A stretch of DNA of 64,000 bases from Octopus vulgaris (GCA_951406725.2 OX597814.1:137578001-137642000), one strand, 5' to 3'. Counted from the first letter of the stretch, positions 7,590 to 59,700 are shown. Notes: generated from the letters alone by a model not told the origin. Made by a program: numbers and translations.

Positions 7590-7639
7590 GTATGTATGTG
7601 TGTATGTGTATATATATGTGTATGTGTGTATGTATATAT

Positions 7640-7673
<34 letters not shown>

Positions 7674-8080
7674 CTATGTGTGTAAGTTTATATGTATGTA
7701 TCCGTCTATATAATAGGTAATTGCACGTACATATACTTAATATTTTTTATTTATTATTTATTTTTTGAGTATGCATGTATGAATAACTGCGCGTATATAT
7801 ATTTTACTATTTACTTATTTTTTGAGTATGCATGTAAGTATGAATATAAGGAGGCGCGTGTGTGTGTGTGTATGTGTAAGCATAGATATATGTATACTCT
7901 TACGCATGGGTGTACTTATGTGTATATATGGACGAGCGCGTGTGTGTGTGCGTGTAAGGGGACGCATGTACATGTGTATGTGTGTGTATGAGTATATGAG
8001 TATGTATGTATGTGTGTGCGTATATTTGTATATGTATGTATGTATGTGTATGTGTGTGTATGAATATATATGTATATATG

Positions 8081-8113
<33 letters not shown>

Positions 8114-8346
8114 ATATGGATATATATATGCGCGTATATATATGTATGTATGTGGGTGTGTGTATGTGTATAAATGTATGTATGTATGGATGTATGGATG
8201 TATGTATGTATGTATACGTATGTATGTGTATGTGTGTACATGTATGTATGTGTATGTGTGTATATATGTGTATATGTGTGTATATGTGTATATATGTGTA
8301 TGTATATGTGTGTGTATGTATATATGTGTATATATGTGTGAATATG

Positions 8347-8404
<58 letters not shown>

Positions 8405-8825
8405 TGTATGTATTTGTATGTAGGTGTACGTGTATGTGTGTGTATTTATATTTATTGGTGTATATGTATAGACTAGCCTTCTAAGAGTGTAGACATGAAT
8501 CTGTAGGTACGCGTACGTATGTGTATATACGTGAATGTATGTAGATGTATGTATGTATGAATATAACGCGTGCGTGCGTGTATGTGTATGAGTGTACGAA
8601 TGAGTGAGTGTACGTGCTAAAGAGTGTGCGTGAGTGAATGAGTGCTTGTTTTCCAGTAGACAGATAAATGGACTGGCTGTCATAGCCAAGATGTTTGTGA
8701 CCAAGCGGCCAAAGATAACAAAAGTAATAAACGAAGATAATAAAATTAAAATTAGGGAATGGGTCTGTATTTGTATGTGTATATATATATGTGTGTATGT
8801 GTAGATATGCATGGGTACACATGTG

Positions 8826-8874
<49 letters not shown>

Positions 8875-9344
8875 GTGTGTGTATGTATATGTATGTGTGT
8901 GTATGTATATATATATATATGTGTGTATGTGTATATATGTGTATATAGGGACTAGTGTGCTGGGTGTGCATGTGTGTGTGTGGATTTGTGTGTGTATGCG
9001 TGTATGTGAGTATGTGTGTGTATGTGTATATATATTTTTCTGTGTGTATATGTATGTGTGGTCGTGTGTGTGTATATATACATGTGTGTATACGTGTATG
9101 CATGTGAGTGTGTGTATGTATACATATATATGTGTATGTGTAGATATGTATATGTATGTGTAAGTGTATATATATGTATATATATATATGTGTGTGTATG
9201 TATGTGTGTATGTATATGTATATGTTTGTATGCGTGTGTATATATGTATACATATGTGCATAGGTATAAGTGAGAATCTCCTTATTTACCTAAAACTCTA
9301 TCCCCCTTTTTTTTTATATATATATATATATATATATTTTATTT

Positions 9345-9378
<34 letters not shown>

Positions 9379-9584
9379 ATTCTTCTATCTAATTTAACAC
9401 TGACTCCTTGACCACTCCCCCAAGCATGATATTTTGCGCTATGCCTACCCCCAAAAAGTCCCCCACCAACACCCCTTTAAACCTGCCTAAATGTATAAAT
9501 GCCAATACAATTCTTGTTAACTAGCTTCCTGAAGATTTCTCTTGAATGAAACAGTTCTAGTCCTGTAGAAGCTCCTTCTATATA

Positions 9585-9590
<6 letters not shown>
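5982..9590 (+). repeat. Right arm of the ~7.5-kb palindrome (inverted pseudo-LTR copy)
   Basis: Reverse complement of 2129-5687; ends directly in (TA)n. Confidence 0.9.
9523..9573 (+). ncRNA. Type I hammerhead ribozyme
   Basis: agcttc CTGAAGA(9529-9535) tttctcttgaat GAAA(9548-9551) cagttctagtcctg TA gaagct; predicted cleavage after GTA at 9567. Confidence 0.85.
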
Positions 9591-9632
<42 letters not shown>

Positions 9633-9754
9633 ATATATATATGCATACATATATACATACATATATATATGTGCATACATATATACACATACATATATAC
9701 ACATACATACATATATACATATAGATACATATATACACATATATATATATATAC

Positions 9755-9802
<48 letters not shown>

Positions 9803-10172
9803 TAAATAAAACATATGCATATATACATACATATATGTACGAACCTACCTCTACATGTATATATACATGCATATATGGGTACAGGACACCAAAAAACCGT
9901 CGAACACAATGAGAAACGAAAACATAAACACAAAACCAAGGAACTGGACATTTTTCTTAAACAACGAAAAGATAGAATACAGGATAAATAACACAAGGAA
10001 AATTCCCCTTCAGTCACCATGGTTTCATCTACTCTGCATTTCGAAGGTGAAGGCGATACGCATCTTCGATAGAAACTTTCCTTCCCGCGAAAAGCAAATT
10101 AAGTAAAATTTGAGATCTTTTTGCGGAGGGGTAAAAATGGTAACAAAAACAGGACAGTAACGACAGTACAAA

Positions 10173-10230
<58 letters not shown>

Positions 10231-10941
10231 ATATACATACATATATATATAAATACATACATATACATACATACATATATATATGTATAATTTGTTTTGC
10301 AATATTCCTGGCGTGAAATTGTGTGTTGAAAGAGATATTGTTGTATTTCAGGATGGTCATTTAATTTTTTTTGCCAAATAAACACATGCACTATATATTT
10401 TTTCTTCACCCATTTATTACTGTTCTTATTCTATTATTTTAACTCCTGTCCATTGTCTGGAAGTCTTTCATGTGAGTTCTTGCTCCACTAACACCATTCT
10501 GTTCTTCTAAGCTGTGTATCCTTATGTGCACATGTGTGTGCATGCTTGTGAGTATGTCATAGTTTTTAGCAACAGTACGGCCTTCCCCTCAGCCCTATCC
10601 TCTCACCCCACTGTGCTGCTGCTATCCTAAGACCTGAACCCCCCACCAAAAAAAAATATGGTACAGTTCCTGTGTATGTGTGTTTGCTCACGTTGTTGCC
10701 ATTGTGGTAGTTGTTTTTGTTGTTATTGCCATCATTGGCACCACTGCTGCTGCTGATGTTAGTTGTGTTGTTGACATTGTTATGGCCATTCATTAAATTT
10801 CATGTGTGTATATGAGTTTGCTTTATATGTTGTATGTATCCATGCTCTTTATATAGTTTTATTTATTTATTTTATATATCTCTGTGTCATATTTATCATA
10901 TGTATATGACAGATATATTTATCTATTTATATATTTCCTTA

Positions 10942-11254
10942 TCTTTATATATAAAACTAAAGTTGTGTGTGTGTGTGTGTGTCTGTCTGTCTACTCCGAT
11001 TTAGATTCCTAACTACTCCCACATTTTGCGGTGCAGTTTAACCAAAAGTGGGTATCTTATAGTCGTGATTCATATCAAGCCCTTCTGGGTATTAGCGTGC
11101 GTCTACGATGAGTCTACGATTTAAAAAAAAATTACCATCATTTTTCCGCATTTTTAATGAATTTTGCTCGGTTATATAAGGGAAGTAACTCTCTAAAAAT
11201 GCTTATATAGTTATTTCCCTTACAAACACGAGCAACGCCGGGCGATACTGCTAG
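10942..11254 (+). mobile_element. Non-autonomous Helitron, family 1
   Basis: 5' TC start (a|tctttatatataaaact), subterminal GC-rich hairpin (cgagcaacgccggg), 3' CTAG|t; inverted copy at 28799-29097. Confidence 0.8.
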
Positions 11255-11809
11255 TTATTATTATTTTTTTTATACATCTATCTCTATTTCTCGTATCACA
11301 GGGAAGTACATAAATGTCTATTGTGTGTATTACCCTGTATATTTCTGTGTATTATTTACAGTTTTTTCCCCATCTCTCTTCTCATCCCTACTGTCTTTAG
11401 TCATGTGGTGTGGTGGCAGATGTTACTGTTCCATTTGTGTTTTCTATTGAAGCCCAGTCTGTCTACTGTTATGTGTGTAGCCTCTGTGAACTGTCTATGC
11501 TGTCATGTCAGTTCTATGTGTCGATATTACTTTGACCTCTATGCTATTAATCAAGCCACCGTGTTGAGCCCGAACATGTTGGCAGAGCACTGACGAGCTT
11601 TTCCCTTCTTTGAGCCCTTGTGAATATTCCCCTCTATGCTCTCCTATGCTGCATGCAGTCACTCTAATGCTGGTAGTTGTCATATTTGGGCACCATACCT
11701 CAGTACATCATAAGCTATACACTACATTCCTAACCTTACAGTTAACCTGTGGGTTAATCCTACATACAACACAATTGTACTCTGTAGAGGGGGACTTATC
11801 GAAGGAATA

Positions 11810-13450
11810 GGTATTACAGATCAGAAATATCTAATTTATGGTCTAATTCATTCCAGGTTCAACTGGTTCAACTCATTGATAATAAACTCAAATTTATCCA
11901 GTTTGATATCTGCAGTTATTATTCCTCTATTAATCCCATCATCCTTAATAAGGCCCTATGGTTCTCACATAATAAATCTGGCCTCACCTGTGATGAATTT
12001 CATGTTATTTTAACAGCTAGAAAATCTATTATCAAATTTGATAATATATTTTGGGCTCGTAAAGATTGACCTGACTGCTTTGATATATTTATGGGGTCTA
12101 GTGATTCAGCCCAATTTTCTGATTTGGTTGGTATTTATATTCTATCAGAATCACAAGGATTGCCTCCTTTACCTTCAAAATATCTCTAATCAACAATTAC
12201 AAAATGTTAAATATAATCTAGTTAAATTCTTTAGCAATATGGGCCAAAATATTACATTTGATGATGATAGAACAAAGGTTAATTTCCTTGACCTTACACT
12301 CAACTTAGATACAACTTTATATTTCCCATACCATAAACCTTCAATCAATCTAAAATATATCAGCATTTTTAGCAATCATCCTACTAATATAACAAAAAAA
12401 TTTGGTTAAAAACATGTCACTTAGAATCTCTAAATTATCCGCCAATATTAATGTTTTCAATAATAATGCTGATTTCTATAAGCTGTCCTTATATAAGGTA
12501 GGATATAGGGAGCAAATTAAGTATTATAACCCTCTTGATCCCAATTCAACCTCTAATAATCTGGTTAATAGTAGTTATACTAATAATAACAATAATAATA
12601 ATACTCATAATGTTTCTCCCATAGGTAATAATCCAGATAATAACCCCTTATATCAAAATAGCCAAAGACCTAATTTTGGAAAATTTAAGAATAAAGTATA
12701 AGGGCAGTAATTATACTTCCCCACTCTTTCTGTGAAAATGGAAAAAACTCCCTATAAATCGCATGACCCTTGTAAAACTATTTGGTTTATTATTCCATAT
12801 GGAAAACAAGTTAAAAGTAACATTCCTTACCTATTTCTTCAAACCATCAAAAGGAACTGTCCCCAAAATTCCAAGTACTACTCCATTCTTAACACACATC
12901 GTATCCAAATTGATTACTCCAACACCAATAACCTCCTACAAATTATATCCTTGCATAACTACTATATTCTTAACGGTAAAAGCTTAATAAATGTAATAAC
13001 AATAATAATAATAATAATAATAATAATGATAATCTCTCCTTAAATAATAGTATTAATAATAATAGTCCTTGTAATTGTGATCCAAACAAAATTTGCAGAA
13101 TTAAAAATGTTGTTTATCAATGTAAAATTTATGCAGGAATATTTTTATGCTGGCATTTCATTCGCAGAATTAAAGAAACAAGTTGCTAACCATCTTTTTA
13201 CATTTAAATATATTCATAAACGTAATACTACAGATCTTAGTAAACTAATTTGGCATCTCAAAGACTGTAATAAATAATTTTCTTTGGATTGGAAAATTTT
13301 GCCAAGATTGTTTCCCTATGATAAAGGGAAATCTTTCTGCTCTCTTTGTATGTACAAACAAATATTTTCCCTTTTTCCAAACACACACTAGTCAACACCT
13401 ATAAAGAACATGTTTACATTGGAAAAAACACTCTTTCAGCTTTTTCAAAT
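11810..13450 (+). mobile_element. Degenerate Penelope-like retroelement (RT C-terminus, thumb, GIY-YIG)
   Basis: Frameshifted ORFs give NFLDLTLNL..YFPYHKP..SNHP, LRISKLS, IWFIIPY..FLQTIK, YAGISF..NHLFTF..TDLSKLIWHLKD and downstream WKIL..YDKGKSFCSLC. Confidence 0.85.
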
Positions 13451-13996
13451 AATATCTGCCCCCTTACCTAATAATATCTGCAACTTAAACTTTATTCTTT
13501 CCTTCATCTTTTCTATCCATCTGTCATTCACTTTCTATTTGTTTATATTTCCATTACTCCTTTAATTCTCTTTCTCCCTTCCTTCTCTTCTTCCCTCATC
13601 CTATGATGTCAAATTTCTTAGCGGTATTTCAAAATTATTAGCATTCCCTATCCACCTTCATTTTCCATATATATATATTATATATTGTAGTTTCGTACAT
13701 CTTTAAAAATGACATTGATGAGCACTGTTGTTTATATCCTCCTTGAGAACATTGATGCATTTTTCCACATTATTCTTTCTCTCGGATTTATTTTAATGCA
13801 TCTACCAAAACATATGTCAGTGATATATGGTGATATAAATGATTTAAATAGCATCTTGAGGGTTTGTCTCCATTTTCAATTATTTTTATATACACACACA
13901 TGTATATATACATATATATACACACATATACATACATATATATATATATATATATACATTCATGTATATATATATATATATATATATATACATTCA

Positions 13997-14036
<40 letters not shown>

Positions 14037-14071
14037 CATACATATATATACACATATATTTACATATATCA

Positions 14072-14320
14072 CCATCATCATCATCGTTTAACGTCCGTTT
14101 TCTATGCTGGCATGGGTTGGACGGTTTGACTGGAGACTGCCAGGAGGCTGCACCAGGCTCCAATCTAATCTGGCAATGTTTCTAGAGCTGGATGCTCTTC
14201 CTAACACCAACTACTCTGAGAGTGTAGTGGGTGCTTTTTACGTGCCACAGGCATGAGGAGCCAGTCTGGCAGCACTGGCATCAACCACATTCGGATGGTA
14301 CTTTTTACATGCTACCAGCA
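14072..14320 (-). mobile_element. 3' end of an RTE-associated retroelement with (GAT)n tail
   Basis: catcatcatcgtttaacgtccgtttt..catgggttggacggtttgac; related pieces at ~27130-27260 and 54098-54137. Confidence 0.5.
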
Positions 14321-14321
14321 T

Positions 14322-14358
<37 letters not shown>

Positions 14359-14424
14359 CACATATATATATACACATACATATATATACACACATACAGA
14401 CATATACATATATAAATGTATTCA

Positions 14425-14625
14425 GGTGCAGTAGTGGCTGTGTGGTAAGAAGCTGTCTTCCCAACAACATGGTTCCAAGTTGAGTCCCACTGCGTGGTAC
14501 CTTGGGCAAGTGTCTTTTACTATAACCTTGGTCTGACCAATGCCTTGTGAGTAGATGTGGCAGACAGAAGCTGAAAGAAGCCCATTGTATATATGTATGT
14601 ATGTATGTATTTGTGTGTCTGTGTT
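14425..14625 (+). mobile_element. tRNA-derived SINE, family B, 5' half
   Basis: gtggctgtgtggtaag ... gtcccactgcgtggtaccttgggcaagtgtc; matches the copy at 22768. Confidence 0.8.
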
Positions 14626-15033
14626 TTTCGACTAAGCAACATGCTATGTGTCCGTTTGGACTACTTCAGGCCTTAACCTGTGGGGGTTATGTGATTTTTT
14701 AATGCACGGAAAAGCTGTCAGTGATATACTCTCTTTGGCAGCAGTCAGCACTGTGTCTAACACAATCCATCATCTGAAATGTTGACACCTCCTTCGGGGT
14801 TATTGTCCTACATCACTCAAAGTAAATTTGGAGGAACTGTGGTTATTTATTTGTAGATAACAGGGAACCAATGTGGTGATAGACTTGCCCTTGAACTTTG
14901 ATGTTGGCATAAATTCATGTTTATCTATCTTCTTAGATGCACCAAATGATGTCATTTGCAGAGTTGTATCGTCTGATATTGTTCAGTCACTAGTCATTGC
15001 CTCAATAAGGCCAAATGTTTGAAGGTCATGCTT

Positions 15034-17238: not shown

Positions 17239-17344
17239 GCTCTCTAAACAGCCACTGAAAATAAAAGTAACTTGCAAGTATACTTTAAACACAACTATCT
17301 TCTAGTCTTTCTTTCACAAAGTTGCTACCATCAAAGTTGAAAGA

Positions 17345-18817
17345 ATGATATTCAAGATTTTGTATTTCCTTTTAATTATCATATTAGTTGTGAAGAGTGA
17401 AAATATAACAATCAATAATGCTATGAAAAATATTCTATTGGATTATAATAACTCCACTTCAACTGAAAACTTTTCTCCGTGGTTTTTTAAACAAATGGTA
17501 GATATCCTAAACTGTGATTCTTTACCAAAATTAAACAACAGTCAAATGCAGTTTGTTTTGAAATCGAATGAAGAAAAGATATATCTGGAACAAATATGCA
17601 ATCGATATTTTGAAGCAAGCCAAAAGAATACGACTGATATTGTTTGTCTGAATGGTAAATGGAGATATGAAGATAAAAAATGTAAGTTAATAACCTGCCC
17701 AACTTTTCATAAGCCTGCTCACTGTAACATGACAAAAGTTTCATACACATATAAATCTGTTATTTACTTTTCCTGCTTTCCTGGATACTTTTTGCAAGGA
17801 AACCGTTCAATACGCTGTGAAGAAACGAAACAGTGGTCATCTCCACCACCAGTTTGTAAACGTGTTACATGTATCCCACCTCATACACCAAAACATGCTA
17901 ATGTGTCCACTACAAAAGAAGTTGAAGTTAACAAAACAATTCATTTCAGTTGTTTGGAACCATATTCATTGAAAGGTAAATCAGTATTAACTTGTCTTGA
18001 AGATGGTGATTGGAACTTTCCAGCACCCGTTTGCACTTGGAAATGTTTAGTGCCCAAAATAGTTGGTAGAGTGACAACTCTCTTACAAAATAAAGTTTTA
18101 AAACCAAAAACATTAATTCGTAGTGGAAAAAAAGTGTTATATTCTTGTAAACAGCCTTTCCTTCCAGTAGCATTCGGAGTCATTCAATGTTTGTCAGGTA
18201 GATGGCATCCAGATATTCAGTGTAAAAAGACATGTAACATTGAGAGAGTAAAGAAATTAAACTATACTTTATCACATAATTTTACAGTGATTGAATATCA
18301 TTGTCCAGCAGGAGAAACATTATTAGGGGACTCTAAAAGAACCTGTTTAGAAAACGGAACCTGGAGTGGTAAACTTCCAGTTTGTGTAAAAAAATGTCAA
18401 CTGTTACCTAACTTAGGCATTTATAGCTACCGAGATTCAGACAACTTACAATACCTTCCATTTGGAAGCTCGGTTCCAGAAAACACTAATATAACATACT
18501 TATGTCAGCAAAATTACACAAAGAAAACGGAGAATGTGAGCTGCTCAAATGGTGTATTGACTCCAGTACCACATTGCTCAGATGAAAGATTTTATGTAGA
18601 AAGCAAACGACTTCGATTCAAATATCAATCAACTCATTATTATGTTTGTGAAAATAATTATTCTTGCAATTTTTTTGGTTACCGTAATTACGGGAAATGT
18701 GATCTAACTTCATGTTATAACAGTAACTGTGTTAGTTTCAGTGTTAACAAAGTATCAAAGCTGTATATGAAGAGATACGATGGAAGTTGTTGCATTATTA
18801 GGTGTCATGAGAACTAA
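17345..18817 (+). CDS. Secreted multi-sushi (CCP/SCR) domain glycoprotein, 490 aa, uninterrupted CDS
   Basis: Hydrophobic signal peptide (MIFKILYFLLIIILVVKS); about six C...C...C..W....C modules (e.g. FSCFPGYFLQGNRSIRCEETKQWSSPPPVC, YHCPAGETLLGDSKRTCLENGTWSGKLPVC); many N-x-S/T sequons; Cys-rich C-terminal module; no TM segment; AATAAA at 18942. Confidence 0.92.
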   Translation: MIFKILYFLLIIILVVKSENITINNAMKNILLDYNNSTSTENFSPWFFKQMVDILNCDSLPKLNNSQMQFVLKSNEEKIYLEQICNRYFEASQKNTTDIVCLNGKWRYEDKKCKLITCPTFHKPAHCNMTKVSYTYKSVIYFSCFPGYFLQGNRSIRCEETKQWSSPPPVCKRVTCIPPHTPKHANVSTTKEVEVNKTIHFSCLEPYSLKGKSVLTCLEDGDWNFPAPVCTWKCLVPKIVGRVTTLLQNKVLKPKTLIRSGKKVLYSCKQPFLPVAFGVIQCLSGRWHPDIQCKKTCNIERVKKLNYTLSHNFTVIEYHCPAGETLLGDSKRTCLENGTWSGKLPVCVKKCQLLPNLGIYSYRDSDNLQYLPFGSSVPENTNITYLCQQNYTKKTENVSCSNGVLTPVPHCSDERFYVESKRLRFKYQSTHYYVCENNYSCNFFGYRNYGKCDLTSCYNSNCVSFSVNKVSKLYMKRYDGSCCIIRCHEN

Positions 18818-24722: not shown

Positions 24723-25374
24723 ACTTCTGCCTGTCTTCCCCCGCCCCCCCATTTTCTCTCAAATTTGTTTATTAAAAATTTTTTTTTTTGCCAAAAATCC
24801 CCATTTTTGGATACGGAGGTTCTGGAAAATTGCCCAAAATTGGCATTGTGAAAATGTTTCCCCTGTTTCCCACCCAACTTCTTCAATTTTGACTTTTTTC
24901 TGCAACACTAACCCTAAAACCCTAACCCTAACCTTAACCCTAAAACCCTAAAATACTAATCCTAACCTAACCCTAAAACCCTAAAACACTAACCCTAACC
25001 CTAACCCTAAAACCCTAACCCTAACTGTAACCCTAATATTAAAACCATAATTGTAAGTACAGAAATGTTTTGAAATTTTTGTCCGAATCCTAATGTCCGT
25101 ATTTTCCCGCATATTCAGAAAAGAAAAAATTCTTAAAAAAAAATTTTACAAAGATTTTTGGAAATTTTTTTCAGAATCATAATCTCTGTATTTTTCTGCA
25201 TATTCTGAAAAAGTTTTTAAAAAATGAAGGAAATGGTGGTGGAGATGGTAATTTAGAAATGTCGATTTTGCCAATTTTTTTGCAGATTTGTATTCTCCGA
25301 AGCTGAAAAGGGGTGGTTTGTGTCAAAAAAAAAGTTTTAAAAAAGGGTGGTTGGGGGTGGGGGAAGGCGGAAGT
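24723..25374. mobile_element. Putative MITE/DNA element carrying an interstitial telomere-like array
   Basis: Imperfect terminal inverted repeats acttctgcc(tgtc)ttccccc / gggggaaggcggaagt. Confidence 0.45.
24908..25036 (+). repeat. Degenerate (CCCTAA)n/(CCCTAAAA) telomere-like array
   Basis: ctaaccctaaaaccctaaccctaacc... over ~130 bp. Confidence 0.9.
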
Positions 25375-29923: not shown

Positions 29924-30348
29924 AGCCGCTGTCCAGAGACGTGCAACCAAACGCATACCCTCCATCAGACACCTACCATATTCTGAGCGCCTTGTTTCCC
30001 TGGGCATGGATTCACTGAAGCTCCGGCGTTTGGCGAGGGACTTGGTAAACACCCACAAAGTTATCAACCACCTCACCAACAACAACACTGAACACCTTTT
30101 TGATCTCCATGTGTCTAACACACGTGGACATGCCTACAAAGTCAGAAAACAATACAGCTCCCATGACTTTCGGAAACATTTTTTCACGCTCAGAGTTGCT
30201 GAAGCATGGAATAAACTGCCTGCGTCAGTTGTTGACTGCCATGACACTGCATCTTTTAAGGCCCTCATGCTTTCCGAAATCCGCCGAAACTACACCTGAT
30301 TATATATACACTTTAGATGAGTTGTAGTGCACCTGAGCACTGTACACA

Positions 30349-30387
<39 letters not shown>

Positions 30388-30547
30388 ATAATAATAATAA
30401 TATACACGTCAGTTGTTGACTGCCATGACACTGCATCTTTTAAGGCCCTCATGCTTTCCGAAATCCGCCGAAACTACACCTGATTATATATACACTTTAG
30501 ATGAGTTGTAGTGCACCTGAGCACTGTACACAATTATTATTATTATT
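29924..30547 (+). mobile_element. Two tandem 5'-truncated CR1/L2-group LINE 3' ends (~29928-30400 and ~30405-30547)
   Basis: Both end in ..gcacctgagcactgtacacaa(tta)n and are near-identical to the 3' end of the full-length copy. Confidence 0.92.
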
Positions 30548-30581
30548 ATAGTGAGCACCATTCACTGGTCTGGTATAGCCA

Positions 30582-30667: not shown

Positions 30668-33433
30668 TCAGGTGTAGTTTCGGCGGATTTCGGAAAGCAT
30701 GAGGGCCTTAAAAGATGCAGTGTCATGGCAGTCAACAACTGACGCAGGCAGTTTATTCCATGCTTCAGCAACTCTGAGCGTGAAAAAATGTTTCCGAAAG
30801 TCATGAGAGCTGTATTGTTTTCTGACTGTGTAGGCATGTCCACGTGTGTTAGACACATGGAGATCAAAAAGGTGTTCAGTGTTGTTGTTGGTGAGGTGGT
30901 TGATAACTTTGTGGGTGTTTACCAAGTCCGTCGCCAAACGCCGGAGCTTCAGTGAATCCATGCCCAGGGAAACAAGGCGCTCAGAATATGGTAGGTGTCT
31001 GATGGAGGGTATGCGTTTGGTTGCACGTCTCTGAACAGATTCCAGGAGGTCAATGTTCTGTGCAAGATAGGGGTTCCAAACTGATGATGCGAATTCCAAG
31101 TGTGGTCGTACCATAGCTGTATACAGTTTTAAATAGATGGCTGGAGAGCGGCTAACAAAAGACCTGCTGAGTGATGCCAAGACACCCTCGGCCTTCCTGA
31201 CAATCTTAGAGATATGCTTTGACCAACGCAAATCACTGCTGACAGTGATGCCTAGGTCACGCTCGCAAGAGGATTTCTTGATATCAGTGTTGTGGAGGGA
31301 GTAAGTGAACGCAGGGTTTTTTCTCCCAAAATGCATGGTGGTACACTTGTCCACAGCCAGTTTCAGTTGCCAGTCTGTGATCCATTGCTGCATTGTGTCT
31401 AGGTCTGATTGCAGGAAAGAGTTGTAGACATCAGGATCTGTCCTCTTGATTTCAAGGTACAGCTTGATGTCGTCTGCATATTTCAATACTGTGGCATTCT
31501 TTAAATTGGCATCTATGTCGTTAATGTATGCCACAAACAAGAGGGGACCAAGGACAGATCCCTGTGGTACACCCGATGACATCTCATATGGTGTAGAGTG
31601 CTGCCCTAGAACTGTGACTACCTCCTTTCGGCTGAGGATGAAGGATTTCAACCAGTTAAAAAGGTCATCCCCCACACCCATTGCAGAGAGTTTCACCATA
31701 AGCCTTTTGTGTGGCACAGAGTTGAAAGCCTTAGCAAAGTCAAGGTAGACAACATCCACCCATGAGCCACTGTCAGTAATCTGAGTAATGTCCTCAAGGA
31801 ACTCGACAAGCTGGTCACTGCAGCTGGAGTTAGGGACAAATCCATATTGTGAGGGTCGGATGAGACTGTGAGAGCTCCAGAAGTTCCAGAGTGTTTCTCT
31901 GACACACGATTCCATCAGTTTTGCAATACAGCTAGTGAGACTGACTGGGCGATAGTTGACAGGTGATGTGCGGTTGCCCTTTTTGAACAGAGGAATGACA
32001 CTGGCAGTTTTCCACTGCTCCGGAGTAGCACCATTGTTGAGACAGTACTGGAAGAAAATAGAAAGCTGGTGTAAAAGGAAGTGCCTGCCACGTTTGAGAA
32101 GCAGGTATGTAACTCCATCGAGACCAGGGGAGGCATAGTTGCGCTTATTTTGAAGGTGACGTCGCAGCATTGCAGGTGTAAATTCCATAGTTGTTATGGA
32201 GTTTGCTGTTAGTGATGGTGAAGATGGTGCATTTTGACTTTCAACAGTGAATATGTTTGCATAGCACTCGGCAATGAGTTCTGCGCATTCCTTGGGGTCG
32301 TCAGTGATCTGGTTTGTGTGAGGGTTGCGAAGAGGGCCCACTGGAGAGTGAGGTTTCTGCTTTGAGTGCACATATTTCCAGAAAACCTTGCTGTCAGGAT
32401 TGGCTGCTATGCACTGTTCAAATTCAAGCACTGCTTTTTTTGTCACTTGCTTGAGATGGTTGGAGGATTTATTCCGCTTCTTCCTGTTGGTGTCTGATTT
32501 ATGCAACCTGTATTCCCGTTCAGCAGTCCGACGTTCCCTCCTGGCAAGTCGGACCGCTGAAGTTTCCCAAATTGCCCTTTTGGGGCGGTTCTTCTTTTTT
32601 TGTTTACGTGGCACTGATGCTGCACATGCTGCCCATATTGAGTCCAGGATACTCTGGAGTATAGTATTCACATCTCCAGAGTTGTAGAATTCACGCCAGT
32701 TTGGGTGCTGTAGTTCAGTGTGGTACAGGTTCCAATCTGCTCTCTTCCAATCGAAGGAAGCAGATTGGAGATGGTTCAGGTTTTTGTTGCCTGCAAGAGC
32801 CAGATTGGCGATGATCATAGCATGATCAGAGTCACCTAGAGGTTCCTCCGTAGTGCAATTGATAACCGCTTCAGGAGTTGTGGTGAAGAGCAGGTCCAAG
32901 GTGTTGTCGCCTCTTGTTGGAGAGGTGACTACTTGTGACCAGTTTGAGTCCAGCACAAGCTCAACAAAATCGTTTGCACTCTGTGGCCAATGGAAGGTCT
33001 CCCAATCGATCTCAGGATGATTGAAATCGCCTGCAATAAACACATAAGTGGCTGTTTTCCTGGCAGCAACTCGGAGGACATTGCAAAGCTGTGTGTCCCG
33101 ATGGTAACTTGGGGGACGATAAACAACGCCAAGCAGGAGTGTTGACATGGTCATACGCACGTCACAGAAAAAAACTTCTTCTTGTGATTCGTTCAAATCG
33201 GCACAAGGAATTACCAAAAAATTTGAACGAACATAGACCATCACACCACCACCACGGCGGTTAGTGCGGTCCTTACGGAAGAGGTTGTACCCCGTAATGT
33301 TGAAAACCCCATCACAGAGTAAGGAATGCGCCCATGTTTCCGTGACAGTGATGAAGTCAGGGTCAACACTTCTGACGTAGGCGTTGAACAAATGTATTTT
33401 GTTGCATAAACTGCGAGCATTTAAGGACAACAA
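30668..33433 (-). CDS. LINE ORF2: APE endonuclease plus reverse transcriptase, 921 aa, intact, no initiating ATG
   Basis: LNARSL, VTETW, AGDFNHP, LDLLF, SDH (APE); NYRPVSL, YLDFAKAFNSV, GVPQGSVLGPLLF, YADD (RT); CR1-type tail FFTLRVAEAWNKLP. Confidence 0.95.
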   Translation of the reverse strand: MLSLNARSLCNKIHLFNAYVRSVDPDFITVTETWAHSLLCDGVFNITGYNLFRKDRTNRRGGGVMVYVRSNFLVIPCADLNESQEEVFFCDVRMTMSTLLLGVVYRPPSYHRDTQLCNVLRVAARKTATYVFIAGDFNHPEIDWETFHWPQSANDFVELVLDSNWSQVVTSPTRGDNTLDLLFTTTPEAVINCTTEEPLGDSDHAMIIANLALAGNKNLNHLQSASFDWKRADWNLYHTELQHPNWREFYNSGDVNTILQSILDSIWAACAASVPRKQKKKNRPKRAIWETSAVRLARRERRTAEREYRLHKSDTNRKKRNKSSNHLKQVTKKAVLEFEQCIAANPDSKVFWKYVHSKQKPHSPVGPLRNPHTNQITDDPKECAELIAECYANIFTVESQNAPSSPSLTANSITTMEFTPAMLRRHLQNKRNYASPGLDGVTYLLLKRGRHFLLHQLSIFFQYCLNNGATPEQWKTASVIPLFKKGNRTSPVNYRPVSLTSCIAKLMESCVRETLWNFWSSHSLIRPSQYGFVPNSSCSDQLVEFLEDITQITDSGSWVDVVYLDFAKAFNSVPHKRLMVKLSAMGVGDDLFNWLKSFILSRKEVVTVLGQHSTPYEMSSGVPQGSVLGPLLFVAYINDIDANLKNATVLKYADDIKLYLEIKRTDPDVYNSFLQSDLDTMQQWITDWQLKLAVDKCTTMHFGRKNPAFTYSLHNTDIKKSSCERDLGITVSSDLRWSKHISKIVRKAEGVLASLSRSFVSRSPAIYLKLYTAMVRPHLEFASSVWNPYLAQNIDLLESVQRRATKRIPSIRHLPYSERLVSLGMDSLKLRRLATDLVNTHKVINHLTNNNTEHLFDLHVSNTRGHAYTVRKQYSSHDFRKHFFTLRVAEAWNKLPASVVDCHDTASFKALMLSEIRRNYT

Positions 33434-33489
33434 TTTGTACCCTGCTCGCAGTTTATGATGGTGTGTAGAGGATGGCAGGTTGTTCTGGC

Positions 33490-34269
33490 TTAGTTTCCCT
33501 GAGTTGCTGTAGTCTTTTTAGTTATTGTGGGTAGAGAGCACTCAGACCAGCTGGTATCTCTCTTCCACGTTTCAGCAGTCTTGACAAATCTCCAGATTTG
33601 TCCATCTTCCCGAAGACTGAAGCTTTCCTGTAGAGCTGAGTTCCTATTCAGGGAAGCCACTACACGTAGCTTCGGACGGTAAGCCTGGGCGTGTTCGGAA
33701 GGTGGTCCGATTTTCCCGCCCAGCTTTAACTGAGGCCAGATGGTAAGAGGTTACCTCAGTGGGGTCCGTAAAAGACAACTTGATGAGCCTAGGTTTTGGG
33801 CCAGGTCGTCCAAGGCGGATAGCACCCGTTGGGGGAACGCAGCCTAGGTCTTTGGCTGAGTTGGCAGCAAAAGCCTGAAGATCAGCCATGTCTTCTGGTA
33901 CCCCAATGGCAATGACTTCATGGGTGGCAGAATCCGCGGTCTTAAATGCGACAAGAGGTACAGGTACAGGGAGGTTCTTTAGCAGAGCATTCCGATAAGA
34001 CCCCTCATTGTGGAGTCCAACCTGAATGGTTGCTTTTATTCCTGCTACTTCCCCTTTTAAAGCACAGATCGATTGTTGCAGTTCTGCAAGAACCGCACTG
34101 GTCAATTGGTGTTGTTGTTGTTGCTGCTGTTGCTCTGGTTGTGGTTGATTTTGTTGTTGCTGTTGTTGTTGTTGATGTTGTTGTTGCTGCTGCTCTGGTT
34201 GTGGTTGATTTTGTTGTTGCTGCTGCTCTGGTTGTGGTTGATTTTGTTGTTGCTGCTGCTGCTGCTCTA

Positions 34270-38189: not shown

Positions 38190-39430
38190 AATTGGGTCAT
38201 CCCATAAATAATGCAGATTTTTAAAAATATTTATTTTATTTTTCAAAATTAAGATAAGCAATGTTCTTTTTTAATCTAAAATATACTCTCCTTCATTTGC
38301 TACAATGCTCTTCCATCTATCTGGTAAACTTGCATGGTCCCTCTTCCAAAATTCACTTGTCTGTGATGAAAAATATTCCTCCAGTACTGTTCTGACCTCA
38401 TCTAGAAAATGCATATTTTTTTTGTCCAAGTGATTTTGAAGACTGCAGAATAAATGATAATCAGATGGGGAAATGTCTGGTGAATATGGTTGGTGGGACA
38501 TCATTTCCCATTCAAACTACTCTAGCCTTTGGAATATCATCCTCGCTATATGTGGTTGAGCATTATCCTGATGGAAGAACACCTTTCATTTTGAAACCAA
38601 TGATGATCATTTTACTTCTAGCATTGACTTAAGCCACTCAAGCTGCTCACAGTACATCTGTTATTTTCTGGTTTGGGTTTAAAAGTTCAAAGTGGACTAA
38701 ACCTTTCATATCCCACCAAACAGATAACAACACTTTATGTGGGTGAAGATCTTCTTTGTCCTGGAGTTTCTCCTTTCCCTACTCACTGTTTTCAGTGATT
38801 CACATTTTTATAGAGAACCCGTTTCTCGTCACCAGTCAATATTTGGTCCCCCAAAAAGGTTCATTCACGAGATGTGATGGAAAAGTTTGAGAGGAACCCA
38901 TTGACCCAATTTGCTGACTTTTCTGATGGCACACAATTGTCAATGAACAGTTGAATGACCAAATCCAAGCTTCTCTGCTAGTTCCTCAACAGTTACAATG
39001 AGATTTTGTTCCACCAGGGTTTGCAGGATGTCCTCGTTAAGATCTACAGATTTTCCAGGACGAGGCTCGTCTTCTAGGCTGTAGTTTCCGGCTCAGAATT
39101 TTTGGAACCACCATTGACATTGGCATATGCTTATTGTCTGATCCCTGTATACTGCATTAATATTCCTTGCATGTTCCGTTGCATTTTTGCCTTTATTGAA
39201 CTCATAAAACAAAATATGGCAAATATGCTCCCTTATCACTTCCATTATAGCTTTGAAAAAATAACTTAAAATCGAACTGCACTCTTCAAAACTTGCACTA
39301 AGAATAATAACAAGGTAAAATTACTACCTGCTTTAAGAGCAAGTTGATGCAGGTAGTTTATCCTGTCCCCCTATGACTTTTAGTTTACGCAATTGAAAAA
39401 AAACTGCATTATTTACGGGATGACCCAATA
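38190..39430 (-). mobile_element. Near full-length degenerate mariner with both TIRs
   Basis: TIRs attgggtcatcccataaataatgcag / ctgcattatttacgggatgacccaat(a); HQPYSPDISPSDYHLF..GEYILD; ~1.24 kb; related fragments at 23425-23525 and 54782-55304. Confidence 0.92.
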
Positions 39431-50062: not shown

Positions 50063-51545
50063 CCTTTAGGAAGCCGAACAAGAAGCTATCATACATTAAT
50101 ACAAGTTCCTGTCATCCAGCCTATCCTCAAGTACAGAGATGTTTGATGCTGCCACCCCATATTACAATGAGGCTTTGGCCACCAGCAGTTTCAAGGAGAG
50201 AATTAGTTATACATCAGACCCTAACCCCTCCAAGAGAAAGTGCCACCGGAAAGTGTTGTAGCTTACACTACCCTTCTCTTTAAGTGTTAAAACCCAAGTA
50301 AGTAATATATTTCTTAGCTTAGTAGATAAGCACTTGCACCATACAAATAGGCTCTACAAAATATTCAATAGGTATACCTTGAGAATTTCTTTTAATTGTG
50401 CACCCAGAGTAAAAAATATTTTAGTACGTAGGTCCACACCTGAGACCTTGAAGCCTGGCAAAGATGCTCATGTAGGGGTGATGCAACATGTCCACTGAAT
50501 GGCCACTGTAACATGGAGATGATCATATACAAGTCAGAGGTAACAGCTGTAGGCCCAAAAGGATAACCAAATGTATGAAAGTATATGAGAGCAACTGAAG
50601 GCCCCTTCAGAGCTCACTATAACAACCACAAGTCCTCCTTCAACATCCTGGAGGGATGTAACGCCACAACCATAGCCAAACATGTTTGGTCTTTGAAAGA
50701 AGGTGTCACTGAGTACGGTATAGAGTGGAAGATCCTGGAGAAATGTAAACTGTACTCCAATAGCAGCAGGTTATGCCTGGTTGAGAAAAGAGCACCCAGC
50801 ACCCAAGCATTTACCTGAATCAGAGAAGTGAAATTTTTAATCCTTGCCCATATGAAAGGAAGTACATCCTATCATACCTGCATGCCCCATCATGACTATA
50901 ATCACTAATCCCTTAACTTTGGCCCTCTGCCAATACCTTGAAGCCTGGCAAAGAGTTTGATCACAGCATACACTAATGCACCTACAAACAAGCATGGCGG
51001 ACAGCTACCCAATAGACTGCCCCCCCCCCCCAATATAAACTTCCACACATATCTTACCCTTTTATACACTGCATACACACATAAAGACCCCATGTACTTA
51101 ACCAATGCATAAAAGAAAGAAAACATGCTAACGAACACAGATGTGTATGTTACACCCCCTGCAAAAGTTATACATATAGTACCACTACACAAATTCCGTT
51201 TCCGTAAGAACACCAACCTTAAGGACATACACATTTTCCACAAACTTTTCCAGAAAACTCTTACTGACTTGCCACATAACCACCCCGGGTGGTGAGGTCT
51301 TGGTACCAAGGATATAACTCTTAACTCAATCCTCTACTCATTTCGTTTCATCATCTTTTTTTAAAGCAATTACAAACTGGATATGTCTGTTCACCTCCAA
51401 CAATAGAGAGCAGTCGCTATATTTCATTCCATATTGACTACCTCTGATGAGCAAAGGGTTACATAATCGGATTGTTACTTAACACTCTGTTGAATCCCTG
51501 GTGCAAAACCCATTGGTCAGATCAGCCATAATGGATATATAATAC
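50062..51545 (+). mobile_element. Degenerate 5'-truncated Penelope-like element (thumb, GIY-YIG, 3' region with decayed hammerhead), flanked by (TA)n
   Basis: YKIFNRYTLRISF, CSCRGDATCPLNGHC..IIYK, FRAHYNNHKSSF..TIAKHVWSLKE..IEWKILEK..RLCLVEK, LNQRSE. Confidence 0.85.
51438..51525 (+). ncRNA. Degenerate hammerhead ribozyme
   Basis: CTGATGA(51444-51450) gca-aaggg...ccct-ggtgc AAAA cccattgg TC; GAAA decayed to AAAA and stem I is weak. Confidence 0.5.
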
Positions 51546-54413: not shown

Positions 54414-54549
54414 CATACATAAATAAATATATGCATGTATATTTATTGAAGTAGTTTGACTTTACAGGTTTTGATGTTACTTATAGTAATAGCCCACTAC
54501 AGGTTTTGATGTTACTTATAGTAATAGCCCTTAATATAATTAATGTATA

Positions 54550-54589
<40 letters not shown>

Positions 54590-54592
54590 CAT

Positions 54593-54625
<33 letters not shown>

Positions 54626-54781
54626 CCGGAGTAAACACATAGATGTGAAACAAGGTGGAAAAAAGAGTACTCAAATACCAGTGGTAGAGTAATATGCTTT
54701 ATTTTAAGCGGCAGAAAATTCAACAAAATCTGTTACTCTAAGTTTCTCGTTGCTGTTCATCAGACAGTTTTTGCTAGAATG
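54626..54781 (-). mobile_element. Solo 3'-terminal fragment of the PLE at 55337-58093, with hammerhead at 54730-54767
   Basis: ~155 bp nearly identical to 55337-55492; abuts (TA)n. Confidence 0.85.
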
Positions 54782-55298
54782 TCATCTTCGCTGTTTGTGG
54801 CCAAGCATTATCCTGACAGAAGAACATCTTTCGTCTTGAAAAAAAATGGTCATTTTCAATGGCATGATGGTGTCAAGGAATGGTTGAATGACCAAATCCA
54901 AGCTTCTCTGCTAGTTCCTCAACAGTTATGATGGGATTTTCCACTAGGGTTTGCGGGATGTCCTTATCAAGCTCTACATATCTTCCAGGAAGAGACTCGT
55001 TTTCAAGGCTGTAGTTTCTGGCTCAGAATTTCTAGAACCACCATTGACACTGGCTTACACTTATTGTCTGATCTCCATATACTGCATTAATATTCCTCTC
55101 ACAACTCATAAAGCAAAGTATGCTGAATATGCTCCTTTGTCACTTCCATTATAGCTTTGAAAAAATAACTGTTGAAAGAATAAGGACAAAGTAAAATTAC
55201 TAGCTGCTTTTATAGCAAGTTGATGCAGGTAGTTTATTTTGTCTCCCTCCGACTTTTAGTTCATGCAGTTGAAATCACTGCATTATTTATGGGATGAC

Positions 55299-55304
<6 letters not shown>
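54782..55304 (-). mobile_element. Mariner fragment with one TIR (family of 38190-39430)
   Basis: ctgcattatttatgggatgacccaata plus internal similarity to 38560-39430. Confidence 0.85.
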
Positions 55305-55338
<34 letters not shown>

Positions 55339-55407
55339 GGAGTAAACACATAAATGTGAAACAAGGTGGAAAAAAGAGTACTCAAATACCAGTGGTAGAG
55401 TAATATG

Positions 55408-56701
55408 CTTTATTTTAAGCAGCAGAAAATTCAACAAAATCTGTTACTCTGAGTTTCTCGTTGCCGTTCATCAGACAGTTTTTGCTAGAATGGAACTGAT
55501 ATATCAATTCAATCTATACTCTTACAAACGCTACACCTTTAAAAAGAAATGGACTTGTTTGATTGGCCCTTTAGAAAAAACGGTCAATCTTCGAGCGATA
55601 AACAAAAAGGTCAAAAATATATGTATATATATATAAAAAAACTTATAAAAATTATAAAATCCGAGGAAAAAAACCTATTGACGTTAATGAAGACAGTGCA
55701 AATTAATGCATAGAAATTAAACCTGTTATAAATACTGCAATACATATTTATATTAAAATCTACATATATATATCAACATACACAAAAGGATGCCAGAAAC
55801 GCCATACATACATATACAGACGTATGAATATAAATCTAAATATACACATAAAAGCATGTGTACATATATTCACGCAAACCGTCTCGCACGCAAGCTAAAA
55901 TTCATCTATGTAGCAATTCTCATATACTGAGCAAGGAGGGCGAACGAAAGAAAGGGAGAGAGAGAAAAAGGAACGAAGGAGGGGTGGGGAAAAAACGAAA
56001 TATTATGTATACAAGCAGTGTAACTGTATTATTGGCATATATAAAGACCAGTATACATACACAAGTTTGAATGGATACACATACATACAGTCGTGTATAT
56101 GTGTGCTTAAGCACAAACATACTTTCACTTACACATACACAGATACGCATGCTTACAAATACATATGCTTTGCTATACACATACTTATATAAATATTCTA
56201 ATTTTGACAACATTGCTTTTTTTAAAAAAACATTGCTTTTAAAAATGGGTGCATTAATAAAAATATATACGAAAGACATATAAAATAAAATAAAATATAA
56301 CATCCTATTTTGGGTCATTTATAAATAATCAAGGTAATTCTATGCAATACAATAACATGAAAACAAAGTTTGTAGGTTTTTCCTAATATATATGTAGAAA
56401 CATAAGACTTTGCTATACGGATTAAGATCCGCATTCCTTGGAAACAAAATCCATCGTAGCGCTCATCGTTCAAGAGTCAAAATCAAAATCAAAAATACAA
56501 AATATATACTCTATCCATATGGTATATATATATTCGACATTTTAAATTTAGCCGCGTGCCTACATAAGTTCATTAGCTCACTTCTTTGATTCAAAGAATT
56601 ATTGTCTTTGAATAAGATGTACATTTTTTCTAATAGACAAAGTCTGCACTTGAAATTATTTTTGTAAGCTCCATGCCTGTATGGTGCCGCCCTGTCCAGA
56701 A
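55408..56701 (-). repeat. Left (inverted) arm of a ~2.7-kb PLE palindrome
   Basis: Reverse complement of 56794-58093. Confidence 0.95.
55441..55478 (-). ncRNA. Minimal type I hammerhead ribozyme
   Basis: - strand ctgt CTGATGA acggcaacga GAAA ctcagag TA acag. Confidence 0.75.
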
Positions 56702-56984
56702 ATACCCAGAGAATAGGAAGAAAACCAGCCTAGCAAAATATGTCTGGGAACTAAAAGAAAAGGAAGCCCCACCTTTCAACGTGACATGGAGCATTCTGGA
56801 CAGGGCGGCACCATACAGGCATGGAGCTTACAAAAATAATTTCAAGTGCAGACTTTGTCTATTAGAAAAAATGTACATCTTATTCAAAGACAATAATTCT
56901 TTGAATCAAAGAAGTGAGCTAATGAACTTATGTAGGCACGCGGCTAAATTTAAAATGTCGAATATAAATATACCATATGGATAG
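56702..56984 (+). mobile_element. C-terminal end of a Penelope-like GIY-YIG endonuclease ORF (92-bp spacer plus the start of the right arm)
   Basis: KTSLAKYVWELKE..VTWSILDRAAPY..KCRLCLLEKMYIL..LNQRSELMNLCRH. Confidence 0.9.
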
Positions 56985-58092
56985 AGTATATATTTTGTAT
57001 TTTTGATTTTGATTTTGATTTTGACTCTTGAACGATGAGCGCTACGATGGATTTTGTTTCCAAGGAATGCGGATCTTAATCCGTATAGCAAAGTCTTATG
57101 TTTCTACATATATATTAGGAAAAACCTACAAACTTTGTTTTCATGTTATTGTATTGCATAGAATTACCTTGATTATTTATAAATGACCCAAAATAGGATG
57201 TTATATTTTATTTTATTTTATATGTCTTTCGTATATATTTTTATTAATGCACCCATTTTTAAAAGCAATGTTTTTTTTAAAAAAGCAATGTTGTCAAAAT
57301 TAGAATATTTATATAAGTATGTGTATAGCAAAGCATATGTATTTGTAAGCATGCGTATCTGTATGTGTAAGTGAAAGTATGTTTGTGCTTAAGCACACAT
57401 ATACACGACTGTTTGTATGTGTATCCATTCAAACTTGTGTATGTATACTGGTCTTTATATATGCCAATAATACAGTTACACTGCTTGTATACATAATATT
57501 TCGTTTTTTCCCCACCCCTCCTTCGTTCCTTTTTCTCTCTCTCCCTTTCTTTCGTTCCCCCTCCTTGCTCAGTATATGAGAATTGCTACATAGATGAATT
57601 TTAGCTTGCGTGCGAGATGGTTTGCGTGAATATATGTACACATGCTTTTATGTGTATATTTAGATTTATATTCATACGTCTGTATATGTATGTATGGCGT
57701 TTACGCGCATCCTTTTGTGTATGTTGATATATATATGTAGATTTTAATATAAATATGTATTGCAGTATTTATAACAGGTTTAATTTCTATGCATTAATTT
57801 GCACTGTCTTCATTAACGTCAATAGGTTTTTTTCCTCAGATTTTATAATTTTTATAAGTTTTTTTTATATATATATACATATATTTTTGACCTTTTTGTT
57901 TATCGCTCGAAGATTGACCGTTTTTTCTAAAGGGCCAATCAAACAAGTCCATTTCTTTTTAAAGGTGTAGCATTTGTAAGAGTATAGATTGAATTGATAT
58001 ATCAGTTCCATTCTAGCAAAAACTGTCTGATGAACGGCAACGAGAAACTCAGAGTAACAGATTTTGTTGAATTTTCTGCTGCTTAAAATAAA

Positions 58093-58093
<1 letters not shown>
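56794..58093 (+). repeat. Right (sense) arm of the ~2.7-kb PLE palindrome
   Basis: Reverse complement of 55408-56701; ends in (TA)n. Confidence 0.95.
58023..58060 (+). ncRNA. Minimal type I hammerhead ribozyme
   Basis: ctgt CTGATGA(58027-58033) a-cg-gcaa-cg-a GAAA ctcagag TA acag; predicted cleavage after GTA at 58056. Confidence 0.75.
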
Positions 58094-58135
<42 letters not shown>

Positions 58136-58183
58136 GGGGTATATAAAGTAAACAAACAGGGTGTTAGTTGTGCTCAACCCTTG

Positions 58184-58240
<57 letters not shown>

Positions 58241-59084
58241 GCCTCTGACCAGCAAGTTACGGATATAGCTAAGAGCATAGTAGACACAAAAACCAATGGT
58301 AACTTTCTGACCAGCCATAACCAACAACTGCATAAAATATATATTCACACACACACACACACACACGTGTGTGTGTGTGTGTATCCTGTTTCTGACCTTC
58401 AAATTATTGAAAAAAATCCAAGAGTTTGCATATGATTCTAATCATTGTCAGTCAGGATTTCCTTTATAAGTGTAAATAGTGCCTTTGTAGAATAGCTTGG
58501 ACTAGACATAGGTGCAGTCTTCTGAAAGAACTACACTATTTAAGGAAAAAAAATCATTATATTAAGCTATTAAATTTTTGCTTTTTTAAGTCTATTTTTC
58601 AACTAAATTCAAATGTTTTAGTAACTCCTGTTTATATTTCTTCATCTATACTTATAATTACTTGTTTAAAGTAATCATAATTGTGTTTAAAATATAGAAA
58701 TTTGAAGAAAATTTCAAAATAACAGTTAAACACTTACTGTGGGGAGGACTCTGTCTTAACATTTTGTTTGAATGTCACAAAAGTATGCCTTTACCAGTAT
58801 AATTCTTTTGTAAGACAGCTTTGTTGGATGGATATTAATTTCATTGTGGCCTTCCATCATAAAAAGATCTCCTTATATCTGGAGTAGCTGACTCACTGAA
58901 CTAGCATACACATACACACGCACATCTGAATGTATATGCGTGTCCATACTAATTATTTTATATATATCTTATAAAATGTTATGTTATAAACAGTTAAGTA
59001 TACATGGTTATTGGGTGAGGGTATGGGAACGTGGCTGGTGGTTGGAAAATAAATAGAATATAGAATAGTTATCCAGGCAGAATA

Positions 59085-59700
59085 TGTGGATTATTCAAAA
59101 TGTTTAAAATCTTGTAATTTAAACTGCATTGTATGTAGGCAAGGAGAGAAAATTTCTTTCCTGATGTTCAAGATGTTTGCTGTTGAGGTTATGATATTTA
59201 GCTTCTCAGTGACACAGGAGTTACAGTTGTCTTGTCTTGTATACCAGTCAAGCCTGGCTATTAAATTTATTAAGGTGTTTTCCACATTGCCACATTTAGG
59301 CCCCATATGATTTTGGTCAAAGACATAATATTTCTTTTATTCTTGTCCCTGAATGAAACCAAATACTGTGTATATCGTTCTCTGAAGGCATTTTTGATCA
59401 GTCTAATTAAAATTTTTATGGTACCACCTGTGTCTGCAATGTTGGCTCTGTAGACCAATTCTTTTATAAGACACTTTTTGTTCAAAGAACACTTATCAGT
59501 GGATTGGTATTTACATAATCATTGTGGTGTTGTTTTTTTTTTATTCTAGTTGAAAATCCCCAAGCCTGTATTAGGATGGTAACTATAAATTTTACTGGGT
59601 TCCTATTAAAGATCTTATGATGTTAGTGTGAACATGGTAATTGGATGTCAATAAATTTTTGGAATCACTGGTTATATTTCTGGCTAAATTTATAGTGTGG
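59085..59700 (-). mobile_element. Degenerate Penelope-like GIY-YIG region
   Basis: CLIKELVYRA..AFRERY..SLTKIIW and CNSCVTEKLNII..LNIRKEIFSPCLH. Confidence 0.8.

Follow-up and report, generated by a model that had tools for sequence, protein, structure and literature searches.

A bulged hairpin, duplicated in relatives, and the one-sided tail of a palindromic Hydra-clade Penelope-like element in Octopus vulgaris

Introduction

How does a retrotransposon come to lie in a genome as two truncated copies joined head to head, with a short tail on only one of them? The question is raised by a palindrome near one end of a 64,000-nt stretch of Octopus vulgaris DNA (GCA_951406725.2 OX597814.1:137578001-137642000; hereafter the window). 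Its layout, including the one-sided tail, is published anatomy of Penelope-like elements (PLEs) and is not new. In the legend to Fig. 2 of PMC8557442 (Craig et al. 2021), PLEs carry at their 5' end an inverted copy that is 5'-truncated, with a tail of 30–40 bp at either end, and passages of PMC3846280 and PMC2377424 give the same arrangement of inverted copy and tail. The palindrome shares with these inverted-pLTR forms an inverted 5'-truncated copy directly at its 5' end and a tail at one end only, which may be either side. The origin of the inverted repeats and of the one-sided tail is named as an open problem in a passage of PMC8557442, and the sections of an in vitro study that bear on it report two start sites of reverse transcription without identifying what sets them (PMC11167929). 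Here, we analyze the locus together with related loci and describe a conserved bulged hairpin, present twice in relatives, that lies beside both ends of the element.

Results

A palindrome with decayed arms and a one-sided tail

The two arms of the palindrome (Table 1) align as inverted repeats at 98.47% identity over 1307 columns, with 10 substitutions in 1297 columns and four indel events. The arms of about 1.3 kb and the 92-bp spacer thus agree with the initial annotation, made from the sequence alone. It had also placed hammerheads about 33 nt inside the outer ends, (TA)n on both sides and a tail of about 70 nt on the inverted arm alone, and all three descriptions hold. The hammerhead cores lie at 58027 (+) and 55474 (−), with 38 nt between a short stem I and the arm end, or about 33 nt if stem I is extended. 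The tail measures 66 nt, and the corresponding tail of the first palindrome in the window, on its longer arm, measures 69 nt. The spacer is in frame with the right arm as the C-terminus of a GIY-YIG endonuclease, so the right arm plus spacer form the longer, direct copy and the left arm is the shorter, inverted one. The inverted arm begins 7 nt past the first base of the Trp codon (56787) of the W-S-I-L motif. The endonuclease remnant ends with a stop codon, followed by the UTR and the hammerhead, and no reverse transcriptase (RT) is carried in this copy.

Table 1. Features of the two palindromes and of a solo copy, in window coordinates
Feature	Position	Strand	Basis
Left flank, (TA)n target microsatellite	55302–55336	.	
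One-sided 66-nt tail, end A to end B, of the inverted shorter arm	55337–55402	−	
Bulged hairpin (motif 1) within the tail: 4-bp outer stem, U-rich bulge, inner stem	55377–55401	−	
Inverted arm, 5'-truncated copy (endonuclease tail from W-S-I-L, 3' UTR, hammerhead)	55403–56701	−	
Type I hammerhead ribozyme motif, Hydra-type	55441–55480	−	compared with Hydra-2_aMil
Inversion junction, only 2-nt (AA) microhomology	56700–56701	.	
Spacer of 92 bp with endonuclease codons, by which the long arm extends farther 5'	56702–56793	+	
GIY-YIG endonuclease C-terminal coding remnant with CxxC..E..N..CxH	56700–56984	+	
Direct arm: endonuclease tail, 1.1-kb 3' UTR, hammerhead, tail-less end A	56794–58098	+	
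Type I hammerhead ribozyme motif	58021–58060	+	
Right flank, (TA)n target microsatellite	58094–58124	.	
Solo copy of the same family, 156 bp (hammerhead, tail, motif), 2.6% diverged	54626–54781	−	
First palindrome, other Hydra-like family	2060–9590	−	
First palindrome, 69-nt tail on the longer arm	2060–2128		
First palindrome, same hairpin motif in the tail	2100–2121		
First palindrome, arms	2129–5687 and 5982–9590		
First palindrome, spacer	5688–5981		
First palindrome, hammerheads	2190 and 9529	− and +	

Three clean CpG transitions at 60 CpG positions, versus four other simple changes (Fisher P 0.003), make the differences between the arms look like decay in vivo. Divergence between arms is about 0.75% in both window palindromes. 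The bases at 56044 and 56080 are common to both arms, and at least 99.8% of the aligned contig depth has another base at these positions, which favors a single template for the two arms. Such shared rare bases could also reflect a host species differing from that of the sequencing runs, or gene conversion between the arms. Contig alignment used only sequencing runs not on record as RNA. Loose ends of these contigs at 56700 contain intact upstream sequence, and none of the contigs listed spans the junction. The contig depth profile falls 5' of the hammerhead with no step at the W motif, and depth cannot rank the parts of the stretch. A third hammerhead of the family sits in the solo copy, and the two tail-bearing copies of the family, palindrome and solo, stop at the same outer base. 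The 5' end of the solo copy is joined to a fragment (54782–55301) that recurs at 38938–39430 and that we take to be mariner-like.

The palindrome belongs to a Hydra-clade family

The locus is almost certainly a 5'-truncated Hydra-clade PLE with an inverted 5'-truncated copy attached head to head. Its endonuclease remnant, hammerhead and (TA)n target bear out the PLE identity proposed initially. The best protein matches of the remnant are RT-endonuclease ORFs, and the third-best comes from Argonauta hians, in keeping with an octopod host. Among full-length relatives the best is P0018 (713 aa, E 1e-26), in which the remnant aligns to residues 624–709 of 713, so the endonuclease is C-terminal. 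P0018 has the motifs RWR and DKT and a CxCx5C linker and lacks CCHH; these parts are missing from the truncated window copy. RWK and DKT motifs, the same linker and the lack of CCHH are features of the Hydra clade (PMC8557442). CxxC..E..N..CxH is kept in both window families, and CxxC and CxH are invariant in our protein alignment A1. According to PMC8557442, in the passages on clade features, Neptune, Nematis and Poseidon are marked by a CCHH zinc finger inside the GIY-YIG core. No such finger is present in the aligned full-length relatives, in a region missing from the window copy, and its absence there, as read from their sequences, points away from these three groups. A Neptune label was tried and dropped, as the full-length relatives have no CCHH and show Hydra-clade features instead. 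A Naiad PLE was ruled out by the C-terminal, not N-terminal, endonuclease and by the hammerheads.

Described members of the Hydra clade (Penelope-13_HM, Hydra-2_Amil and Hydra-1_Obim) likewise combine a C-terminal GIY-YIG domain with CxxC and CxH, a canonical hammerhead near the 3' end and a (TA)n target. The supplement of PMC8557442 lists (TA)n targets and an octopus Hydra family, and in Penelope-13_HM the inverted 5'-truncated copy measures 966 nt and each strand has a hammerhead (PMC8557442). The core and stems of the window hammerhead, a candidate ribozyme, are nearly identical to the Hydra-2_aMil motif. The hammerheads of both window families are unlike that of Hydra-1_Obim, and the window families are therefore other families. 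They also differ from described Hydra elements in their long 3' UTRs of 1.1 and about 3.6 kb. The longer one, in the first palindrome (2340–5570 and the mirror arm), is mostly TA/CA microsatellite and far exceeds those described. Unlike in the general PLE layout, both arms of the window palindromes are truncated to nearly equal length, and their tails (66–69 nt; about 60–72 nt in relatives) are longer than the 30–40 bp given in the PLE papers cited above. At its gathering threshold, Rfam returned no match in the whole window, hammerheads not being scored, and Pfam recognized neither the endonuclease remnants nor P0018. Exact patterns of the palindrome's family had no match among metagenome or viral contigs, scans of the viral contigs at the protein level were also negative, and a search for near-length homologues gave no candidate. 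No full-length copy of the palindrome's family was found.

Head-to-head junctions recur in related loci

The initial annotation had taken two palindromes within 50 kb as a sign of a regular mechanism rather than an accident. A recurring product is what the wider comparison supports. It covered 91 related loci with a Hydra alignment, namely 77 of 249 confirmed metagenome stretches and 14 further loci. Protein mapping located head-to-head junctions in five of the 91, all from one assembly, and inversion-type joints occur among contigs of the palindrome's own family. One of the loci, L079, is a full palindrome, with 758-nt arms that are 100% identical and a one-sided tail. On 55337–56793, three of the 13 contig joints listed are opposite-strand and two more are inversions given a polarity switch of the reference; six further backward joints, of a kind unstated, occur among family contigs. 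The tail-bearing arm is the short one in the palindrome studied here, in L090 and at 11383–11530 of L087 (where the arms have only 82 nt in common); in the first palindrome and L079 it is the long one. Exceptions are L082, with tail sequence on both arms, and L081, with tail sequence on neither.

Related loci also contain rearrangements of other kinds. A twin-priming-type inversion with abutting segments lies at 3653–4827 of L087, and inversions with abutting or slightly overlapping segments are seen in L083 (2666–3586) and L088 (1–995). At about 3425–3506 of L087, an insert flanked by AT-rich repeats consists of the tail alone and spans end A to end B; at 77–129 of L082, the inverted arm consists only of part of the tail. 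The family held in L087 matches Hydra-2_Amil by hammerhead and tail. The contigs of L078–L091 are filed in bacterial MAGs and carry animal-type Hydra PLEs in (TA)n; these are probably host DNA in the bins.

The inversion point had further been claimed to lie inside the GIY-YIG C-terminal coding region, at nearly the same protein position, a W-x-I/L-L motif, as the truncation point of the first palindrome. The coding location stands, but the closeness compares unlike points. The initial annotation set the short-arm start here (W+2 codons) against the long-arm start of the first palindrome (W−7), nine codons apart, whereas the two long-arm starts are 21 codons apart, and simple models give a 4–23% chance of such closeness. 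In other Hydra loci only one of 11 breakpoints falls within 15 codons of W, so a clade-wide breakpoint rule is not supported; long arms in those loci are biased upstream because the search words lay in the RT. The local picture is modestly favorable. Two of four non-terminal joints in family contigs have their breakpoint 14–20 nt before the W codon (P ~0.01, for an interval picked after viewing the data and joints at the 20–21-nt detection limit). A real hotspot at W in this family is possible but doubtful. A folding scan at the W codon showed no unusual structure, only the highest local GC (0.55–0.58).

A bulged hairpin is conserved in the tails

The tail contains a hairpin with two stems, an outer one of 4 bp and a variable inner one, together with a U-led bulge of 2 nt and a conserved RCT on the 3' side. 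Most relatives have GCTC/GAGC as the outer stem; the two window families have ACTC/GAGT, and L078 and L086 have GCAC/GTGC. A strict pattern for this hairpin matched 60 times in 42 of the 91 loci, versus 1–8 times in ten shuffles. A covariance model built from eight non-window sequences gave 140 matches at E ≤ 1; these fall in 71 of the 91 loci and represent 49 of 64 sequence clusters. The three window tails were the top three of its 16 window matches, with rough E-values of 0.07–0.08. A strict-pattern pair at 56077/57422 lies in a CA/TA-rich stretch, is absent from the model's 16 window matches and was taken as chance. The tails of the two palindromes resemble each other at a score reached by one of 5000 shuffles, although no 3' UTR DNA can be aligned between the two families. 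Their description as unrelated thus applies to the 3' UTRs; the two share a clade and a tail motif.

Base pairing was assessed with and without fitting. In an alignment fitted to the structure, 98.2% of cells are paired, compared with 6–42% in slid controls, and 112 are changed on both sides; none of 500 shuffles reached as high a value. Without fitting, 72 of 86 3' anchors have a complementary 5' word. In these 72 copies the first inner pair is C-G in 48 and T-A in 22, and the bulge is TT in 47, TC in 12 and TA in nine. The inner stem reaches at least 3 bp in 38 of the 72, versus 6.4 in shuffled sequence and a mean of 11 (maximum 23) with swapped halves. Two-nucleotide U-led bulges are typical of RNA–protein sites. 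The mean stem is 2.75 when G-U is allowed and 2.57 when A-C is allowed, a weak strand test, so the hairpin may instead form in the cDNA.

Read by eye, the consensus ends published for Hydra-2_Amil and Hydra-2_Ajap, which were recognized from their hammerheads, contain the motif, and Hydra-1_Crog has a GCCC/GGGC variant. Rfam gave no match to the hairpin and only sub-threshold microRNA-like matches off the motif (window 54500–58300, 6/91 loci). We found no description of the hairpin in the papers open to searching or in the main-text passages of PMC8557442 on these elements. A twin hairpin marking both ends appears undescribed.

Mapped element ends lie just 5' of one of two hairpin copies

In read-through relatives, twin motifs sit between the hammerhead and the start codon, 55–80 nt apart with a median of 62 (18 distinct pairs in 17 clusters), a spacing that matches the tail length. 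We compared this layout with 45 element ends that run from a hammerhead into a microsatellite. One motif precedes 17 of them, at 92–118 nt from the cleavage site; no motif was called before the other 28, and no end has two motifs before it. Of the 28, 22 lie at 31–63 nt and five at 96–150 nt. For 15 ends, a read-through copy with a motif farther downstream allowed mapping. All 15 fall 0–6 nt 5' of that motif, which is motif 1 in 11 cases and motif 2 in four. The other 30 were not mappable, and the 14 mapped ends from outside the window represent nine clusters.

Contigs of the palindrome's family show the same tail-less end. In all four runs, the loose end ranked first is the joint of 55403 to (AT)n (28, 76, 40 and 33 contigs; best 24 of 734 rows). 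The last bases of the palindrome's tail are themselves similar to the beginning of the motif, and hairpin 2 was not seen in this family, for which no read-through copy was at hand. Element ends often coincide with TA/AT microhomology to the target, which might by itself draw ends towards AT-rich places. Full-length copies, too, often have their 5' end at or beside a hairpin (L084 7643, L063 125 and L083 720–767).

Discussion

We consider it probable that the palindrome arose in one event, in which both ends of the cut target primed reverse transcription on one read-through RNA, one at each hairpin. The tandem transcript would run from hammerhead through hairpin 1 and hairpin 2 to the start codon, the order seen in relatives. 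With element protein on hairpin 1, copying would begin 0–6 nt upstream of hairpin 1 and yield the arm without a tail. With the protein on hairpin 2, copying would begin upstream of hairpin 2 and take in hairpin 1, so that the arm acquires a tail of 60–70 nt. At both starts the AT-rich template could pair with the (TA)n primer, each cut end being primed on the same RNA. The two cDNAs would stop at different points and be end-joined head to head with little homology, and the spacer would be the difference in their reach. The palindrome would then be a by-product of transposition and not a selected hairpin gene. More tentatively, the twin hairpin may be both the binding site of the enzyme and its ruler, with two proteins priming both ends from one RNA. 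If so, tail length equals hairpin spacing, and both the one-sided tail and the head-to-head palindromes are accounted for. It would also be the first sequence rule for the start of copying by a telomerase-related retrotransposon. PLE RTs are the sister group of telomerase, and an RNA anchor therefore bears on the origin of template-bounded copying. The hairpin, present twice at a fixed distance from both ends in many families, makes the tail problem directly testable and offers a way to call the boundaries of Hydra elements.

In L1 twin priming, two primers on one RNA give a 5' inversion. The abutting segments at 3653–4827 of L087 resemble its products, and together with the tail-only insert in the same contig they fit two primings on one RNA. 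The palindrome differs in that its arms do not abut on the element; they duplicate 1.3 kb of one 3' segment, as both primings seem to have begun at the element 3' end. A precedent is found in Poseidon PAc (Frangieh et al. 2024, PMC11167929). In the in vitro results given there, the PLE protein cleaves and extends both target strands, in AT-rich DNA, and two internal start sites on the RNA bound the tail. The PAc sites lie inside the ORF at an AC-rich stem-loop, and the sections of that paper on the start sites report no duplicated motif. In Hydra, by contrast, both sites precede the start codon, and a copy of the same conserved hairpin follows immediately 3' of each.

A palindrome would also result if a cDNA folded back and copied itself, as proposed for PLEs in a passage of PMC3846280, with the tail later trimmed off one arm and the spacer flipped by recombination between the arms. 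Such snap-back copying explains near-identical arms with shared rare bases, the perfect arms of L079 and short spacers, and one contig has an 11-bp arm and a 10-nt loop at a junction. We nevertheless regard it as unlikely. The tail on a spacer-less arm demands the later flip, likewise at L087 11383–11530, where the sequence common to both arms is 82 nt; junction homology in the palindrome is limited to 2 nt; and the tail-less end recurs in 28–76 contigs per run at a fixed distance from the motif. It is similarly improbable that the hairpin acts on DNA, with the GIY-YIG endonuclease recognizing it in the cDNA or an intermediate and cutting beside it, so that the tail is removed or kept. A passage of PMC8557442 ascribes the tail to endonuclease-mediated resolution, the Drosophila virilis endonuclease is stated in PMC11167929 to need tail sequence for recognition, and the strand test above is not decisive. 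Against this, the start sites of the Poseidon RT were measured at both tail boundaries (PMC11167929), and the U-led bulge is of the RNA–protein type.

Priming of both target ends on one RNA also has to be weighed against two independent head-to-head insertions into one (TA)n, homogenized afterwards. The family is abundant (4331–14936 contigs aligned per run), the solo copy is only 560 bp away, and nesting into (TA)n is common in related loci. The junction, however, contains no (TA)n, the start points of the two arms, about 1.3 kb from the end, are no more than 92 nt apart, and the arms differ by 0.77% versus 2.6% for the solo copy and share rare bases, all of which makes this history very improbable. 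An assembly or library artefact, such as a fold-back chimera, would agree with the unspanned junction and with the fact that no run contains the whole stretch (best share of words 0.75). The clean CpG transitions among the arm substitutions speak against it, as do arms that finish at both family-specific ends and the recurrence of the layout in L079, which comes from an unrelated assembly, and in a consensus already published; we think an artefact extremely improbable.

Other elements in the window

Decayed Hydra-like relics of other families lie at 11839–13376 (+), 50115–50871 (+) and 59133–59515 (−), and the 64 kb hold at least five Hydra-like families. A LINE ORF of 949 aa, with endonuclease and RT recognized by Pfam, occupies 30668–33517 (−) and is presumably CR1/L2-like. 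Short LINE copies at 29929–30386 and 30407–30549 lie tail to tail in (ATT)n, an inverted repeat formed by a different route. The window also contains a 503-aa single-frame ORF with Sushi repeats (Pfam) at 17306–18817 (+) and a degenerate (AACCCT)n telomere-like tract at 24904–25056.
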